Positions 20,195 through 57,703 of a stretch of DNA of 64,000 bases are shown piece after piece. The position numbers were made by a program, and so were the translations under genes. The notes under the pieces were generated by a model that made no database searches, had not been told where the DNA came from, and saw nothing but the letters and a program-made list of their open reading frames with translations. Each line of letters opens with the position of its first letter. The stretch's first letter is position 1. The stretch is from Promethearchaeota archaeon (GTDB lineage Archaea; Asgardarchaeota; Lokiarchaeia; Sigyniarchaeales; SOKP01): the NCBI GenBank assembly GCA_030599585.1, contig JAUVNS010000008.1, positions 160,001-224,000 on the forward strand. The letters run 5' to 3'.

Positions 20195-21073
20195 CTATGA
20201 GAGTAATTTTGGAAATCTTTGCTTCATTGATAATTCTTTCTGGATGATTTCATTTAGTAATTCTTCTCTCTCTTTACCAGCAAGTATTTCCAATTTTCTA
20301 ATTTTTAAGGGATCAACTTTTTCTCTCAATACACTAATCTCTTTTATTGTTGGAGGATTTGTCTCTTGAATATTCTTAGGGATGACCAAATCAAACCCAG
20401 TTGATTCTTTAACATCCTCGATATCAACGCCAGGATGAGTTGATGCTAACCTCATACGCTTGGTTTTTTCATCAAAATCCAAATAGGCTAAATTAGAAAT
20501 CATACATTGCGGTCCCGCTCCACCACAAATAGAAGGATTACCATCAGGGAAGCCAACGCCGGAAATAAAATCTAATTTTTCGGTTGGAACAAATGTTCGT
20601 GAATCGTGACGAGGAGTGTACAGAAATGATCCTCGGGCGTAGAACATACTAAAGTCAGCTATCCCAGCACAACCCGGTAATCTTATTTTTGGTTTATTCC
20701 AATCTCCAATACAAATATTATTCGTATTGCCGTATTGATCTATTTGTGCCGGTCTAAAGAACTCAATCGTAGTAAGTTTATCCGAAGGAAGAGACTCTAA
20801 CGTACATTCCCCGGAATTTTGAAAGCGATAAGCTCTAGCGGTATTCATTTCTAAATAGAGCAGAGAGACTTGGCGAGGTTCGAACACAAAAGTATTCCCC
20901 ATAATATAATGATAAATGGCGTTTGGTGCGTGTGTCATTTTTGCTAAAGTAAATGCTGCCCATACGCAGGGAGTTGCAACTCCAACGATCATAACGTCAT
21001 CATCTTGAACTTCTCTAGCCATTAAAACTGTAATCATTTCGTCTACGGTATAATCTTTAGAAGTCTCACCCAT
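20195..21073 (-). CDS. Family I CoA-transferase-fold beta subunit (GctB-like) lacking the catalytic Glu
   Basis: EMITVLMAREV...AKMTHAP, AQIDQYGNTN, RLPGCAG, HPGVDIEDVKESTGF; the position of GctB ESG reads IMG. Confidence 0.88.
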   Translation of the reverse strand: MGETSKDYTVDEMITVLMAREVQDDDVMIVGVATPCVWAAFTLAKMTHAPNAIYHYIMGNTFVFEPRQVSLLYLEMNTARAYRFQNSGECTLESLPSDKLTTIEFFRPAQIDQYGNTNNICIGDWNKPKIRLPGCAGIADFSMFYARGSFLYTPRHDSRTFVPTEKLDFISGVGFPDGNPSICGGAGPQCMISNLAYLDFDEKTKRMRLASTHPGVDIEDVKESTGFDLVIPKNIQETNPPTIKEISVLREKVDPLKIRKLEILAGKEREELLNEIIQKELSMKQRFPKLLS

Positions 21074-21246
21074 TTCTTTCCACTTTTCTTAGAGTATTAT
21101 ATTTTTTTAATCGAGAATTCTAGTGTTATATTTATTTGGTAATAAGAAAACATTTAAGATTTTCTAAGAGTCTAATCTGAAAATAATCATAAAGGTGTTG
21201 AAAAAAGTAAAAATTGAAAAGTTATTCGATATTTTTCTTTGTAATT

Positions 21247-21858
21247 ATGTACATTGTCTGTTTTGATTTAGAAGGCGTTTTCACTCCTGAAGTATGGATT
21301 GCGGTAAGTAAAGCTACTGGAATTGATGAACTTAAATTAACTACACGAGATATTTCTGATTATGATATCCTTATGAAAAATCGCATCGCAATATTAAAAA
21401 AAAACAATATCACTCTTAAAGAAATACAAGAGATTATTTCGAAAATGGATTTATTACCTGGTGCAAAGGAATTTTTGGATTATATTCGTTCTGTAGCCCA
21501 AGTAGTTATTGTAACTGATAGTTTTATTGATTTTGTAATACCTTTTATGAAAAAACTGGGTTTTCCTATGTGTTTTTGCCACAATCTTGAAATAAATAAA
21601 GAAGGTATTATTACTGATTATAAAATTCGTATTAGTGAGATGAAAAAAAAGACAGTTTTAGCTCTCAAAAAGTTAAATTACGAAGTGATTGCGGCAGGGG
21701 ATTCGTATAATGATGTATCCATGTTATTAGAAGCAAAACATGGTATTCTGTTTAGACCACCAAAAAATGTGGTCGAACAATTTCCAGAACTCCCGGTTGT
21801 TAATGAATACGATGAATTAAAAGATTTGATTTCTAAATATTTAGGGTTTTCCGATTAG
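21247..21858 (+). CDS. thrH: Phosphoserine phosphatase / homoserine phosphotransferase
   Basis: HAD motif DLEGVFTPEVW, LTTRDISDYD, AAGDSYNDVSML, GILFRPP; ATG 21247 preferred. Confidence 0.92.
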   Translation: MYIVCFDLEGVFTPEVWIAVSKATGIDELKLTTRDISDYDILMKNRIAILKKNNITLKEIQEIISKMDLLPGAKEFLDYIRSVAQVVIVTDSFIDFVIPFMKKLGFPMCFCHNLEINKEGIITDYKIRISEMKKKTVLALKKLNYEVIAAGDSYNDVSMLLEAKHGILFRPPKNVVEQFPELPVVNEYDELKDLISKYLGFSD

Positions 21859-21873
21859 GTTATAAATCGCGCT

Positions 21874-23232
21874 CTAATCTTGAAAATCTTCTAATAAATA
21901 TTCTTTAAAATCCGTATAATTGATAATTTCTTTTGGGTTTGGAAATTCGGATTTATCTTGTATTACTTTTAACGAATATGGCATTTTTGGAACGATGTCG
22001 ATTAATTTGATTATTTCTTCAGGAAATTTTGAAGGATTAGCAGTTTCAAAAGTTAATGATTTAATATCATTATTCTTCGGATAACTATCACGATATAGCT
22101 GGAGCGCAGCCCACCCAACAGCTCCGTGAGGTTCAATTATTTTTTTATATTTATTATAAAAATTAACTATTGCATCTTTAGTTGCTCCATCGCTTATAGA
22201 ATATGAAACAACTTCATTACGAAGCTCTTCCATGTTTGGTATTTTATGTATTACTCCTTTCTCGTCTATTTTACCTCCATAAAGATCAAAGATTCTTGCT
22301 AAATTTGAAGGATGACCAACATTCATAGCATTAGATATGCAGTTTATTGATGGATCGACTTTAGTATAAACTCCCGTTTTTAGAAATTTTGGAAATTCGT
22401 TGTTTTCATTTACAGCTGAGATAAATCTCTTTATAGGAAGCCCCATTTTTTTAGCAATTAGACCTCCGGTAAGATTTCCAAAATTCCCTGAAGGAACAGA
22501 AAATATGACCTTTTCGTTCTTTTTATCTACAATTCTGGAGTATCCCCAGAAATAATAAAGCGTTTGAGGTATCAAACGACCAAAATTTATAGAATTCGCT
22601 GATGACAAATTTATATGGTTTAACTCTTTATCGCCGAAAGCACTTTTTACTAACTTTTGACAATCATCAAATTTACCCTTTATTCCAATGGCAGTTATAT
22701 TTTCACCCAGTGTCGTCATTTGTTTTCTTTGTAAGTTACTGACTTCGTTTTTTGGAAATAATACTACAACTTTAATTCTATACATTTTATAAAATGCTTG
22801 AGCGACAGCACCTCCTGTATCTCCTGAGGTCGCCGTTAAGATTGTGATATTCTTATCATCTACTTCGAGAAAATGTTCCATTATTCTTGCTAACGTTCTT
22901 GCTCCAAAATCTTTGAAGCTACATGTAGGACCACGATCTAAATAGCATATATAATCATTATTAACAATATTTTCTATAGCTATTTCAAAATTTAAGGCAT
23001 TATTTACGATTTGCTGAAGCTTCTCTTGCGATATGATTTTTCCAATGAATTTTGCAATTATAATATTAGCAATATCAACAAAATCCATGTTTTTGAACGA
23101 ATCAATCGTATCATTAGTCAGTCTTGGAATTTTATTTAGCATATATAATCCATTGTCTATAGCTTGGCCTTGTAAAACAGCAGTTTTGAAATCTACATCG
23201 TCTGAATTATAATTTGTTGAGTGAAAACTCGT
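21874..23232 (-). CDS. thrC: Threonine synthase (bacterial class II type); conserved N-terminus extends 30 codons upstream of ATG 23142
   Basis: GPTCSFKDFGAR (PLP Lys), ATSGDTG, NSINFGRL, VPSGNFGNL; upstream in-frame (ACG)-SFHSTNYNSDDVDFKTAVLQGQAIDNGLY matches the ThrC N-terminal domain. Confidence 0.92.
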   Translation of the reverse strand, partial: TSFHSTNYNSDDVDFKTAVLQGQAIDNGLYMLNKIPRLTNDTIDSFKNMDFVDIANIIIAKFIGKIISQEKLQQIVNNALNFEIAIENIVNNDYICYLDRGPTCSFKDFGARTLARIMEHFLEVDDKNITILTATSGDTGGAVAQAFYKMYRIKVVVLFPKNEVSNLQRKQMTTLGENITAIGIKGKFDDCQKLVKSAFGDKELNHINLSSANSINFGRLIPQTLYYFWGYSRIVDKKNEKVIFSVPSGNFGNLTGGLIAKKMGLPIKRFISAVNENNEFPKFLKTGVYTKVDPSINCISNAMNVGHPSNLARIFDLYGGKIDEKGVIHKIPNMEELRNEVVSYSISDGATKDAIVNFYNKYKKIIEPHGAVGWAALQLYRDSYPKNNDIKSLTFETANPSKFPEEIIKLIDIVPKMPYSLKVIQDKSEFPNPKEIINYTDFKEYLLEDFQD

Positions 23233-23233
23233 C

Positions 23234-24256
23234 TCAAAAACCTCTTCTTTTTTTGACTATACTAATAAGATCGTTTAATATAGCAGATGCTGCTTCAAAA
23301 CCGCCAGCTCCCTTCCCTATTAAAATTATGGATCCCGCGTACTTGGTTTGAAGTTCAATTAGGTTCAATGTTCCTTGAACATTTAGAGGTGAATCTCTTT
23401 TAACCAACCTTGGCTCTACAGTTAAATTATTATCTTTAGCAATAGCTAGATGTTTTATTACATAACCATCTAATTTTGCTAGTTCCAATGCATGTGGCGT
23501 GATTTTAGTAATTCCTTTAATCCTTACATCTTCAATAGATTTTGACCATCCAAGTAACTCGTTTGATAGAATTACTAGTTTCCCAGCTGCGTCATAACCA
23601 TTAATATCTAAACTTGGATCCGTTTCTGCATATCCTAATTCTTGCGCCTCTTTTAAAGCTACTGAAAAAGAAATCCCTTCAGCTGTCATTCGACTTAGAA
23701 TATAGTTATTTGTCCCATTTAATATTGCTCTAATTCGAGAGATTGTATTTCCTATAAGACTTTCTTTAATTGATAAAGCAGGAACGCAACTTGCAACCGT
23801 TGCTTCAAATTTAACTAAACAATTCATCTTTTCAGCTAAATTTTGTATATTAGTGTACTGTAAATAAAACGGTGCTTTATTTGATGAAATTACATTGATA
23901 CTATTCTTTAATGCTTCTATAATGTGCGATAATGCGGGTTCTCCAGTATTTGGGTTAGTTGGTGTAGTTTCAATACATATTTCTATATCTAAAGTAGAAA
24001 TTAAATCCTGAGCTTTCACATTACTTGTCCAATATTGATTTTTTCTTAAATTATTGTAATCCTCCAATACATTATCTAAATTTATTCCAGCGTTATTAAT
24101 CAGAGCGCCGTCGTGTTCGAAAATGGCAACTAATTTGAAATTGAAATTAAAGTTAGCTCTAATATAATCTCGTTTTTCTTTTAATAACTGAAGAAAGCGT
24201 GTTCCAACATTTCCCATTCCAATTAAACAGATTTTCACTTCCATATCTTTACACAT
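23234..24256 (-). CDS. hom: Homoserine dehydrogenase
   Basis: GMGNVG Rossmann, SNKAP, FEATV, ILNGTNNYIL, AQELGYAETDPSLDINGYDAAGK, GKGAG. Confidence 0.95.
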   Translation of the reverse strand: MCKDMEVKICLIGMGNVGTRFLQLLKEKRDYIRANFNFNFKLVAIFEHDGALINNAGINLDNVLEDYNNLRKNQYWTSNVKAQDLISTLDIEICIETTPTNPNTGEPALSHIIEALKNSINVISSNKAPFYLQYTNIQNLAEKMNCLVKFEATVASCVPALSIKESLIGNTISRIRAILNGTNNYILSRMTAEGISFSVALKEAQELGYAETDPSLDINGYDAAGKLVILSNELLGWSKSIEDVRIKGITKITPHALELAKLDGYVIKHLAIAKDNNLTVEPRLVKRDSPLNVQGTLNLIELQTKYAGSIILIGKGAGGFEAASAILNDLISIVKKRRGF

Positions 24257-24266
24257 AACTGATTTA

Positions 24267-24758
24267 TTATGATCGTATCAAAAAGAGATTTTTCTCTTTA
24301 CATATTTTTTCAATTTCAGTTGTTAGTTCAAATTTTGTCATAACTTCAGGAAATTCTGCTTTCATCATAACGCTACTTATTTCATCAACTTCAGTAAACT
24401 TAGCGTGTAATTCAAGAACTTTAATGCTCTTGGAATCCAATCGTTTAATGGTTTCTGTTATATCTGAGTCGAAAACGTGCCCAGTTAAAATGAAAGTCAA
24501 GATTTTATTTTTAGAGTTAACAGAAATCTTGGTGAGTTGTATATTATTTTCGGTTAAATTTTTTTTTATGTTTTCTAGCGATATTTCAATTAGTTCTTCA
24601 CTTAATTCAAACCAAATATCAACTGGAATCATGTTATTAAGTTTTTTATCATGATGGTGTAATACACCATGGATATTTCCCCCATTTTGGGAGATTGGTT
24701 TTATTAATTCAATTAAGCTTCCCGGAATATCCGGTAATTTAACTTCTAAGTAAATCAT
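24267..24758 (-). CDS. Tandem ACT-domain protein (archaeal homoserine dehydrogenase regulator type)
   Basis: LPDIPGSLIELIKPISQNGGNI and ILTGHVFDSDITETI motifs; directly upstream of hom. Confidence 0.82.
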   Translation of the reverse strand: MIYLEVKLPDIPGSLIELIKPISQNGGNIHGVLHHHDKKLNNMIPVDIWFELSEELIEISLENIKKNLTENNIQLTKISVNSKNKILTFILTGHVFDSDITETIKRLDSKSIKVLELHAKFTEVDEISSVMMKAEFPEVMTKFELTTEIEKICKEKNLFLIRS

Positions 24759-24954: not shown

Positions 24955-25830
24955 TTACAATAATATATTTAATATCATTTCTGCGCCGCCAGCATTATCC
25001 AGATATTCAGCGTTCGATTTTACATCAATGAATTTACGCTTATATTCGTTAAAAGGCGTTTTAAGATATTCTTGAATGTGAAGTGCATCGAATGTATAAC
25101 GATCGTAGCACGAAGTGGGATGAGCTCCAAAAGGCACTTTTACGACGGCATTGGTAGTTTGCATTGGTAATTGCGCTTTTCCTTGTAGATATCTAATATC
25201 TTCTGTTTCAAGTAACCTTTCGCAGGTAATAATTGTTTTTTTTGCAGTCTTAGCCATATCGTCATCCATCCAAACTGCTCCCGCTATATTTCCATTGCCA
25301 TATTCATCCGCAAAAGGGACATGTAAAATTGCAACATCTAAGTCTATTTTAGGGATGGCCATAAGTTGAGTGCCTGAACCCAAAGGATCTTCGAACTGTT
25401 TTATATCGTTCCTGACTTTAGGAAAATCAGTACCTATCATCCCTTTTAATGGCATAAATGGAACTTTTAAATACGAGCTTTTCAATCCAAGAGCAATTGA
25501 TGCTTCACTTTCCTCGGAAATACTTACTGAACCTGATTCCACAGCCTTTCTATAATTCGGGGCCATGCCAAATATTTCCATACCAACAAAACAGCTTCTT
25601 ACTTCTGACACGCAGCCCGCACCAATAAGCATATCAATATCTATCCCACCAACAAAAGTACATAGCGATAAACCTTTTTTATTTTGCTTAATCATTTCTT
25701 TACAAGCACTTATTGGTTTTCTCCAAAAAGAAAGCCCTCCAATTCCAACTAAATCACCATCTTGAACATAAGTAGAAATTGCCTCATCTAAGGTCATTAG
25801 TTTACTTTTTTGAATTTTCGATCTCCTCAC
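24955..25830 (-). CDS. Family I CoA-transferase-fold alpha subunit (GctA/IpdA-like)
   Basis: KLMTLDEAI...DGDLVGIGG...RKP, DMLIGAGCV, PFMP...GTD, ADEYGNG, PFGAHPTSC. Confidence 0.9.
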   Translation of the reverse strand: MRRSKIQKSKLMTLDEAISTYVQDGDLVGIGGLSFWRKPISACKEMIKQNKKGLSLCTFVGGIDIDMLIGAGCVSEVRSCFVGMEIFGMAPNYRKAVESGSVSISEESEASIALGLKSSYLKVPFMPLKGMIGTDFPKVRNDIKQFEDPLGSGTQLMAIPKIDLDVAILHVPFADEYGNGNIAGAVWMDDDMAKTAKKTIITCERLLETEDIRYLQGKAQLPMQTTNAVVKVPFGAHPTSCYDRYTFDALHIQEYLKTPFNEYKRKFIDVKSNAEYLDNAGGAEMILNILL

Positions 25831-26730: not shown

Positions 26731-26905
26731 ATTTACTCTACCATTTTTACCATTACAAATTCTAATATTAATTAACATTAACTTCTTTTAAATATTTTTT
26801 CTCAGATAATTTTATTATGATGATTTTTAATTGATTGAGTATTACATCATAATATATTAAGCTTAGAGGTAATGCATCATTAGAAAAAGATTAAAACAAG
26901 GGCTA

Positions 26906-44752: not shown

Positions 44753-44804
44753 TTCGAAATTAAAAGAAATTTTTTATCACCTTAGTTTTTTTTATCTCTT
44801 ATAT

Positions 44805-54988: not shown

Positions 54989-56080
54989 TTAGATTTTAAT
55001 CTTAATATCATATCTAGCAAGTAGTAGAGCTATTCCTGCTTCTATTACTATTGGTAAAACTCCAACTAAAAGCATAGTAATTAGAGGATTAGCCACAAGA
55101 AAACTTCTATCAAGAAGACCTATAGCCACATCAAAAATAAAGGCTAATATAAAGAGTAATAGCATATTTTTACCCATTTCTGAAAGTACAGGAATCCTAA
55201 AGTTCATTTTTTCGAATCCATAGAAAACGGCAATTAAGAAGCCAGAGGCCGCGATCGCTAGGAATGCTAGAGATGTTGTTGCGTCGTGATGTTCTGCAGG
55301 TTGGATCCAGTCAAGACAGTAGAAGGCTATTATAAAAATGGTTGCGACTGGTAAAATTCTTTTTTTAAATCCAACATTTGGATCTTCGGGTTCCATTTTG
55401 TACCATTGAGAGAAACATGTCCCAGCAATAGCAATTGCAGCATGATTTAATGAATTAAACGGAAATGGAATAGTTCCTACTCCTCCAAGCCCTTTATGCT
55501 CAAATAGTGGAGTTGCGTAGAGTATCGCATGAAGGATCAATATTCCGATGCAAACATATAACCTTTTATCTGCACTTTTAGGGATTAAATACGCCAAGAG
55601 ATAAGCAGCAAAAGTTCCAATCGCTAAATTTGCTAAGGTACCATACCATAGCACTTCATCCCAAGGAATTCCGTCACCAAAAAGTAACCCCCCAATTAAT
55701 CCGTCATCTAAGAATGCTAGCCCATATAGAACTGCTACACGGATAATGCCATGCTTCCATGCGGCGCCAACGCCTTTTTTTTCCATCCTACTCGTAAAAG
55801 CAATATATGCTACATAACCTAAGATGAACATGAAAATTTGTTGACCAATATCAATAATTGTTATTAAAGCTGGATACCCGTCGTAGTACTGGAATCCGTG
55901 ATTTAAAAGGGGTGGTCCTATAGGAATTTCAGTCCCGGGAAAATTGCCTGAAAGTGGCCATGTAATCACCGATATTATAAGAAAAATAATAATTAATCCC
56001 CGAAATTGATCTAACCATTCATACCGTTTATGTAATTTTGTTTTTCTTTCTTGTTCTACTTCAATTTTTTCCTCAGTCAT
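54989..56080 (-). CDS. Membrane acyltransferase-like protein (HGSNAT / DUF1624-like)
   Basis: RYEWLDQFRG, F.FILG, MGKNML; about 10 TMs. Confidence 0.7.
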   Translation of the reverse strand: MTEEKIEVEQERKTKLHKRYEWLDQFRGLIIIFLIISVITWPLSGNFPGTEIPIGPPLLNHGFQYYDGYPALITIIDIGQQIFMFILGYVAYIAFTSRMEKKGVGAAWKHGIIRVAVLYGLAFLDDGLIGGLLFGDGIPWDEVLWYGTLANLAIGTFAAYLLAYLIPKSADKRLYVCIGILILHAILYATPLFEHKGLGGVGTIPFPFNSLNHAAIAIAGTCFSQWYKMEPEDPNVGFKKRILPVATIFIIAFYCLDWIQPAEHHDATTSLAFLAIAASGFLIAVFYGFEKMNFRIPVLSEMGKNMLLLFILAFIFDVAIGLLDRSFLVANPLITMLLVGVLPIVIEAGIALLLARYDIKIKI

Positions 56081-56248: not shown

Positions 56249-57703
56249 ATGAAGAGAAGAGAGTTAATTTCGTTATTTTTCTTTTTGTCGTTAATCCTAA
56301 TCATTGTCATGGATAGTGCTTTGTTTCTACCCAATGAAGTGTTAATTGCCGCTGATTTGGGAATATATTTTGACACTATAGGCATTATCATAAGTATATA
56401 TACTATCGTAAATGGTATTTCAATTCTAGTATTCGGATATTTAACCGATACGATAGAGAGAAAAAAGATTTTAATCCTTGCTGGAGTATTGTGGTCTTTA
56501 ACGGCAATACTGCATATATTCGTAGAAGAATTCTGGCAATTAATGCTTGTTAGGATTGTAGCAGCAATCGCTGTAAGTGTAACCACTCCACTTGTAATTT
56601 CATATTTAGCAGATATAATCTCATCTGATTCACGCTCAAAATCTTTTGCGTTTTGGGGTTTGATAACAAATATAGGAACCTTGGTTGCTGGGATAGTAGC
56701 TTTATCATTTAATGAGATTGATTTCGAAGCTATAGAATTACCCCTCCTTCAGAAAATCGACTTTATCGCCCTTACTTATCCAGATGTGTTATATACTTGG
56801 AAGCTTCCATATTTTTATCTTGGTATTATTGCTCTCATATTTACCATCCTTAATTATTTCATAACCGTAGAACCAAAAAGAGCGGCAAAAGAAAAACAGT
56901 TAGAAGAAGTTTTTTTAGACGAAAATGTCCGGTATTCTTATAAGATCAAATTTTCAGATTTAAAATTCGTCTTTAAGAGGAAATCAAATTTCTTCCTGAT
57001 GTTTAACTTTTTTGATGTCATCGCTTCAGGATTAGTATTAGCTTATATATTCCCCTATATCCAGCTTGAAATTGGTGTTAGTGTTGTCGATATCAAAGTC
57101 ATTATTCTATTTCTCTTCCTAATTGTTTTGGGATTAATAATTGGACAATTTTGGCTTGCACATTTGGGGGATAAAAAAGTTCAGCGTGGAGATCTTTCTG
57201 GTAGGGTGAAAGTAGCGGTTATTTGTTCGATTTTGAATTTACCCTTCTTTTTATTTGGATTTGCGATGACACCTAATGTTGCAAACTCTACTTTCTTCTT
57301 TGGTACTTTGTTGGTCAACGATATTGGATTTTGGGTTTTGTGGTTGGTCTATTGTACGTTTTTAGGTGTAGGTCTCGCTTTAACTATGGGAATTGGTCCC
57401 AATTGGTATAGTTCTCTTATTGATGTTAATTTCCCCGAGAATCGTGGGACTATGGTTGCAGTCGGAGCCTTTATAGATTCTATCGGACGAGCCTTAGGTG
57501 CAATTATAGGTGGTTTCGTGGTAACATTAACGGGAAGCTTTTCTGCGACGATTTTTTGGTCTTTTTTAATATTTGGGATATTTTCTACTTTCCTATGGAT
57601 TCCCCTTTTCTTTACTGCTAAAAAAGATTATTTAGAAATAAATGAGGCTATGAAAAATAGAGCATCTTCGTTAAGTAAAATACAATCAGAGGAATCTCGG
57701 TAA
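56249..57703 (+). CDS. MFS transporter
   Basis: FGYLTDTIERKK motif A, DVNFPENRGT; multiple TMs. Confidence 0.88.
   Translation: MKRRELISLFFFLSLILIIVMDSALFLPNEVLIAADLGIYFDTIGIIISIYTIVNGISILVFGYLTDTIERKKILILAGVLWSLTAILHIFVEEFWQLMLVRIVAAIAVSVTTPLVISYLADIISSDSRSKSFAFWGLITNIGTLVAGIVALSFNEIDFEAIELPLLQKIDFIALTYPDVLYTWKLPYFYLGIIALIFTILNYFITVEPKRAAKEKQLEEVFLDENVRYSYKIKFSDLKFVFKRKSNFFLMFNFFDVIASGLVLAYIFPYIQLEIGVSVVDIKVIILFLFLIVLGLIIGQFWLAHLGDKKVQRGDLSGRVKVAVICSILNLPFFLFGFAMTPNVANSTFFFGTLLVNDIGFWVLWLVYCTFLGVGLALTMGIGPNWYSSLIDVNFPENRGTMVAVGAFIDSIGRALGAIIGGFVVTLTGSFSATIFWSFLIFGIFSTFLWIPLFFTAKKDYLEINEAMKNRASSLSKIQSEESR

Follow-up and report, generated by a model that had tools for sequence, protein, structure and literature searches.

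In a genome of the Lokiarchaeia and in most of its close relatives, translation of threonine synthase very probably begins at a conserved ACG codon, with guidance by a Shine-Dalgarno motif and, presumably, decoding by the initiator methionyl-tRNA (Met-tRNAi). The gene, thrC, follows hom in a 64,000-nucleotide stretch of Promethearchaeota archaeon DNA (assembly GCA_030599585.1, contig JAUVNS010000008.1, positions 160,001 to 224,000), hereafter the window, which belongs to an archaeal metagenome-assembled genome (MAG) of 4.85 Mb with 33% G+C, designated G000. The analysis established the position of the start, the conservation of all three of its bases and of the ribosome-binding site, the constraint acting on codons 2 to 30, the recurrence of such starts at other genes and the CAU anticodon of the initiator tRNA. 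The features concerned are listed below with their positions in the window.

23230..23232, minus strand: proposed thrC start codon, ACG at the Met1 position, conserved across relatives
23240..23244, minus strand: Shine-Dalgarno motif GAGGT, complementary to the 3' end of 16S rRNA, ...GGATCACCTCCT
23233..23239, minus strand: seven-base spacer TTTTGAG, which includes the hom stop codon TGA (23236-23234)
21874..23232, minus strand: thrC, encoding threonine synthase; 452 codons and a stop, counted from the ACG
23143..23229, minus strand: thrC codons 2-30, missed by any ATG-only gene call
23234..24256, minus strand: hom, homoserine dehydrogenase of 340 amino acids (NF004912, E 1.9e-111; NF004976, 259 bits)
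24267..24758, minus strand: ACT-domain gene upstream of hom (PF01842, 25.3 bits, slightly below the cut-off of 27)

On the minus strand, the junction reads ...AAA AGA AGA GGT TTT TGA G ACG AGT TTT CAC TCA ACA AAT..., so that the thrC Shine-Dalgarno motif is located within the 3' end of hom and a single G (23233) separates the hom TGA from the ACG. In the thrC frame, the TAG stop at 23259-23257 is followed by TCA AAA AAA GAA GAG GTT TTT GAG ACG. No ATG, GTG or TTG occurs in this frame from the TAG to the ATG at 23142 (codon 31), and none of the other near-cognate codons ATT, ATA, ATC and CTG occurs between the TAG and the ACG. The 16S 3' end of the studied genome carries CCTCCT, and the spacing of seven bases between GAGGT and ACG falls within the peak of 6 to 12 that this genome displays before its ATG starts. 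When translated from the ACG, the product matches TIGR00260 with 239 bits (cut-off 167) and has a complete N-terminal domain, with residues 3-79 covering positions 2-78/79 of the Thr_synth_N profile (PF14821), followed by a PALP domain (PF00291) at residues 99-386. It also aligns with E. coli ThrC (1VB3) with an E value of 7e-79, residue 9 pairing with residue 9, and is thus colinear with it from Met1. An earlier note on this DNA had described a junction devoid of ATG, GTG and TTG up to 23142, with an ACG where Met1 is expected, 7 nucleotides after GAGGT and 1 nucleotide after the hom stop. Direct reading bore out this description, and the same arrangement recurs in independent assemblies. The note's suggestion that the ACG serves as initiator behind GAGGT is likewise supported by the comparative evidence that follows.

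The genus is represented by 42 species genomes, ten of which make up the ThrC clade of the studied genome (support 100/99). ACG occupies the codon homologous to Met1 in nine of these ten, and the eight ACG genomes other than the studied one also have no canonical start upstream of the conserved N-terminus. Only G002 carries ATG at this position within the clade; outside it, ATG is present in the outgroups G054 and G046 as well as in genomes farther away. Since G002 is nested in the clade as the sister of the studied genome, ACG arose on the clade stem, with a reversion to ATG in G002. All nine ACG species genomes retain GAGGT, the seven-base spacer and ACG as a unit, whether these lie inside hom or in intergenic sequence, and the spacer follows a conserved (T/A/C)TTTGAN pattern also where hom ends upstream. 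We then turned to public sequences. Contigs sampled from JGI/ENA behind ThrC calls that begin at Met31 carried GAGGT-N7-ACG in six of six cases, and a metagenome scan for GAGGTNTTTGA-N-NNN-..., in which the start codon is unconstrained, returned 18 contigs, with ACG in 15, ATG in two and ATT in one. Among full-length public ThrC calls, the same codon is ATG in L205 and TTG in L206 and L208. In L207 (NCBI JAGXNY010000004.1, 32770-34734), the annotated thrC start is an ATT that lies two codons 5' of a kept ACG and one base past the ribosome-binding site, an annotation probably forced by the list of starts in translation table 11. Altogether, the codons seen at the thrC start site were ACG, ATG, TTG and ATT only, and never ACA, ACT or ACC.

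These data also bear on the most mundane explanation, namely that the sequence or its assembly is wrong, or that thrC is a pseudogene in this MAG. A single T-to-C change would turn ATG into ACG, and a five-base homopolymer adjoins the site. However, the ACG is found in nine species genomes and in more than 20 metagenome contigs that are independent of one another and come from different projects, and thrC remains intact, with purifying selection acting along its entire length. The point error or indel that the earlier note had kept in reserve is excluded by these independent MAGs and contigs, and we consider the probability of an artifact or a pseudogene to be negligible.

To characterize the behavior of the codon, we compared it with the remainder of the gene in the nine ACG genomes. 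Among four-fold degenerate sites with a conserved amino acid, 23 of 108 were invariant, and only 2 of 24 were when restricted to G/C-ending codons. ACG represents 14% of the threonine codons, and none of the conserved threonine columns retained it across the nine genomes. Given this low invariance, the occurrence of nothing but start-type codons at the site indicates that it behaves as a start rather than as a threonine codon, which would be expected to drift to ACA or ACT. The codons that follow bear the marks of translated sequence. The ratio of nonsynonymous to synonymous polymorphism (pN/pS) was 0.27 for codons 2-30 compared to 0.25 for codons 31-130, and these 30 residues are also encoded in relatives whose codon 1 is ATG or TTG. 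Codons 2-30 form the first third of Thr_synth_N (about 28 of 79 positions), and solved structures of ThrC align with them from residue 4-9 on. It could be argued that ThrC starts at the ATG at 23142 (Met31) and that the 30 preceding codons are untranslated, as this is the first canonical start and the one used in 82 of the best 120 public ThrC clusters, which are 422-amino-acid calls beginning with MLN.... Nonetheless, codons 2-30 are as constrained as the rest of the gene and are part of Thr_synth_N, which makes a start at Met31 very unlikely; no Shine-Dalgarno motif is visible immediately upstream of the ATG at 23142.

A third alternative, raised by the earlier note, is a programmed +1 frameshift at UUU UGA that would fuse Hom to ThrC through a junction peptide ...RRGFETSFHSTN and turn the ACG into an internal threonine codon. 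The model for such an event is bacterial prfB, encoding RF2, in which the shift takes place at CUU UGA C with the help of an upstream Shine-Dalgarno-like element. The resemblance is real in the studied genome and five relatives, where hom ends with NTT TGA one base before the ACG, a Shine-Dalgarno-like GAGG lies directly upstream of the candidate slip site and the +1 (thrC) frame is open across it; G056 even carries CTT TGA, identical to the prfB slip site. In contrast to prfB, hom does not reach the site in four of the ten species, the slippery codon is not conserved and the codon that follows acts like a start. In G050, G014, G044 and G013, hom ends 27, 29, 21 and 20 nucleotides upstream of the ACG, in frames 0, 2, 0 and 2, respectively, with TGA or TAA stops in frame 0 and TAA in frame 2, yet GAGGT(T/A)TTTGAN-ACG is kept there as intergenic sequence. 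Because the hom end frames differ among these four species, no single recoding event accounts for all of them. Moreover, the metagenome variant L204 has the nonslippery TAT TGA, and the restriction of the site to ACG, ATG, TTG and ATT is not what an internal threonine codon would produce. Aligning the junction across related genomes, as had been proposed in the note, revealed the conserved ACG and no in-frame fusions: hom and thrC are separate open reading frames (ORFs) in all relatives. Database proteins of at least 792 amino acids did not include a Hom-ThrC fusion either, which is weak evidence. The frameshift thus found no support, and we regard it as extremely improbable. As hom also ends upstream in the ATG outgroups G054 and G046, the overlap in the studied genome seems to be a derived change by which the C terminus of hom extended into a pre-existing ribosome-binding site.

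The ribosome-binding site is weaker in the lineage that reverted to ATG (AAGGT in G002 and L205), and the ATG outgroups carry AGAGT or AGAGA, which fits a compensation between the strength of the site and that of the codon, although very few events are involved. In a genome with 33% G+C, C-to-T is the expected direction of mutation, so that the retention of ACG by most lineages may point to selection rather than drift.

We then sought other genes in the studied genome that might use the same codon. We scanned 3524 ORFs delimited by stops and at least 150 codons long for orphan Shine-Dalgarno motifs, scoring in-frame codons located more than 10 codons before the first canonical start for a Shine-Dalgarno 5-mer at the spacing typical of the genome. 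ACG ranked first of all codons in this position, with 11 occurrences observed and 2.4 expected (p 2.6e-5), and it was enriched relative to ACA, ACT and ACC (Fisher p 0.0004). Next came CTG, ACA (11 versus 5.2 expected, p 0.016), which is not a near-cognate codon, ATT (41 versus 20) and ATC, and there was no enrichment of AAG or AGG. The following ACG cases were judged convincing, with positions given by contig of the studied genome.

C40:110464: SMC, ACG start; 99 codons without a canonical start, Walker A included
C24:76396: 2-oxoacid oxidoreductase gamma subunit, AGGAGG-N7-ACG; GxGGQG motif 5' of the first canonical codon
C32:120646: Nob1-like PIN protein, ACG start
C9:330357: ParB-like protein, ACG candidate

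The homologous SMC start in the genus is ACG GCT in 19 genomes and ATG in two, and a second SMC subgroup reads ...ATA ACG GTA... in three genomes and ...ATA ATG GTA... in a fourth. For the gamma subunit, six close relatives carry ACG and two carry ATG, as do 13 more distant ones, with GGAGG always upstream; the Nob1-like PIN start is ACG in five genomes and ATG in one. The ParB-like protein had no orthologue in the five relatives searched. SMC starts with ATG in the other families of the order, three single-contig genomes included, and the habit of starting this gene with ACG thus appears to be mainly confined to the genus. Two further matches were discarded as chance occurrences: FEN1, whose start is an ATG farther downstream (MGV...), and a membrane protein (C12:56571) that begins with ATG. 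The idea that G002 had lost all use of ACG was also rejected, as ACG is kept at its SMC and Nob1 genes. The earlier note had further speculated that the thrC start might respond to threonine. The use of ACG at genes as unrelated as those encoding SMC, the oxidoreductase gamma subunit and the Nob1-like PIN protein lends no support to a threonine-specific logic.

Codons other than ACG were also observed in comparable positions. In the studied genome, UvrB (C34:37635, plus strand) shows ATT ATA ATA behind GGTG, with the first canonical codon past Walker A, and a geranylgeranyl-reductase-like gene (C50:92345 onward, plus strand) shows GAGGT-TTTTATT-ATT, the same site and spacing as in thrC, with the first canonical codon past GGGPGG. 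Both genes appear to start at ATT. Within the window, an ORF for a CobA/CobO-like ATP:corrinoid adenosyltransferase (…GLVQVYFGRGKGKTTAALG…) displays GAGGT and then ATC ATT after an upstream stop (26876-26881, plus strand), and its first canonical codon comes 11 codons in, so that ATT or ATC is the probable start. A strong Shine-Dalgarno motif precedes a near-cognate codon in two more ORFs of the window: GGAGGGG-N-ATA at 56733 (minus strand), where the first canonical start lies 54 codons in, and AAGGTGA-N5-ATT at 44770 (minus strand).

The recurrence of ACG also calls attention to RNA editing, whereby the genomic ACG would be turned into AUG by C-to-U conversion of the mRNA, or by another lineage-specific device, and initiation would be canonical. 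Plant organelles create AUG starts from ACG in exactly this manner, and, as in these organelles, the genomic ACG of thrC is found where relatives carry ATG. Editing would explain the free interchange of ACG and ATG at several genes, and the DNA data fit it and near-cognate decoding equally well. To our knowledge, however, no C-to-U editing of mRNA is known in archaea. A search for the DYW-type deaminase (PF14432) gave no match in the studied genome, although the control set was equally empty. The initiator tRNA is ordinary, and, unlike in plant organelles, near-cognate codons beyond repair by editing are also enriched: ATT, ATC and CTG behind orphan Shine-Dalgarno motifs cannot be made into AUG by C-to-U changes and fit a relaxed reading of the start codon instead. 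Editing is in our view unlikely.

Near-cognate decoding by Met-tRNAi is the simplest explanation, and we also examined the initiator tRNA. Its gene (contig C3, about 55190-55330, minus strand) has a CAU anticodon, an A1:U72 pair and three G:C pairs in the anticodon stem, with an intron of about 48 nucleotides after position 37. A regular-expression search for CAT or CGT in an initiator-type stem returned a single initiator-like gene, with CAU, and no second initiator tRNA with CGU, within a tRNA set that was incompletely surveyed. Indeed, aragorn detected 17-21 tRNAs and Rfam 27, most likely because many tRNA genes are interrupted by introns. The gene for the archaeal initiation factor aIF1 (SUI1; C3:26012-26360, plus strand), which has a Cys-rich zinc knuckle in its N-terminal part, contains no ATG, GTG or TTG before approximately the last ten codons. 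A factor charged with start-codon proofreading must consequently itself be translated from a noncanonical start, which hints that start stringency may be tuned in this lineage.

In the mechanism that we propose, thrC would be an internal cistron of an ACT-hom-thrC operon, of which the ACT-domain gene is probably the first member, as judged by the 10-nucleotide gap and the common strand alone. GAGGT (23244-23240) would pair with the 16S 3' end and place the 30S subunit with the ACG (23232-23230), seven bases downstream, in the P site. There, the ordinary initiator Met-tRNA (CAU) is presumed to read ACG through a C:A mismatch at the middle position, yielding a full-length ThrC that starts with Met-Ser-Phe-His-Ser-Thr-Asn, for which the expected N-terminal peptides are SFHSTNYNSDDVDFK or MSFHSTNYNSDDVDFK. 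In the six species with a hom stop one base before the ACG, re-used terminating ribosomes may add to initiation, but this is not required since four species lack the hom overlap. ThrC output would be lower from ACG than from AUG. Two observations concern the surroundings of this block: paralogous CoA-transferase genes lie on either side of it (20195-21073 and 24955-25830, both on the minus strand), and a HAD hydrolase gene (21214-21858, plus strand) is convergent with thrC, a layout also found in metagenome contigs.

Initiation at ACG is known in eukaryotes and viruses, for instance for VP2 of adeno-associated virus (AAV) and C' of Sendai virus. As in these cases, the thrC codon would presumably be read by Met-tRNAi with a middle mismatch, giving a functional full-length protein at an output probably below the AUG level. 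In contrast, the thrC site would be picked by a Shine-Dalgarno motif on an internal operon cistron instead of by scanning and a Kozak context, and the ACG would be the sole start of a housekeeping enzyme in an archaeal host rather than the start of an isoform. Bacterial infC (encoding IF3) and pcnB use AUU starts, infC being autocontrolled. As proposed for thrC, a conserved noncanonical start behind a ribosome-binding site sets the level of expression there, and the aIF1 gene without a canonical start recalls the infC logic. Unlike AUU, however, the thrC codon has its mismatch at the second position, and no autoregulatory loop is implied for thrC, since it has no role in start-codon proofreading.

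Several points weigh against initiation at ACG. The support for it is wholly comparative and drawn from sequence, and editing of the mRNA to AUG would yield the same genomic pattern. The species of the clade are non-independent observations, and a count such as nine of ten overstates the number of separate events. NCBI table 11 does not list ACG as a start, and our literature searches turned up no paper on such starts in archaea, Asgard archaea included. In addition, archaeal aIF1 is reported to discriminate against noncanonical starts (PMC6237735). The starts described for archaea are AUG, GUG and UUG (PMC7531240), and in ribosome profiling of Haloferax, about 30% of putative alternative sites were near-cognates, which were set aside by the authors (PMC7261190).

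Near-cognate initiation itself is already known. What would be new here, and what the comparisons strongly support, is Shine-Dalgarno-guided near-cognate initiation on housekeeping genes in an Asgard archaeon. A practical consequence is a systematic annotation error, as 82 of the best 120 public ThrC clusters lose 30 residues and with them a portion of a folded domain. Natural variants of thrC with ACG, ATG or TTG behind the same ribosome-binding site also constitute a ready test set. Whether the observation extends further is a matter on which we are evenly divided: ACG together with ATT, ATC and CTG may be regular, selectively maintained starts across this Lokiarchaeia genus, with a stringency that is self-tuned in a eukaryote-like manner via aIF1. 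If so, thrC, smc and nob1 would be kept at a low or stringency-dependent output, and near-cognate initiation, usually thought of as eukaryotic, would already be systematic in archaeal relatives of eukaryotes. In the archaea most closely related to eukaryotes, start-codon stringency seems to be different, which bears on the evolution of near-cognate initiation and of eIF1/aIF1 proofreading.

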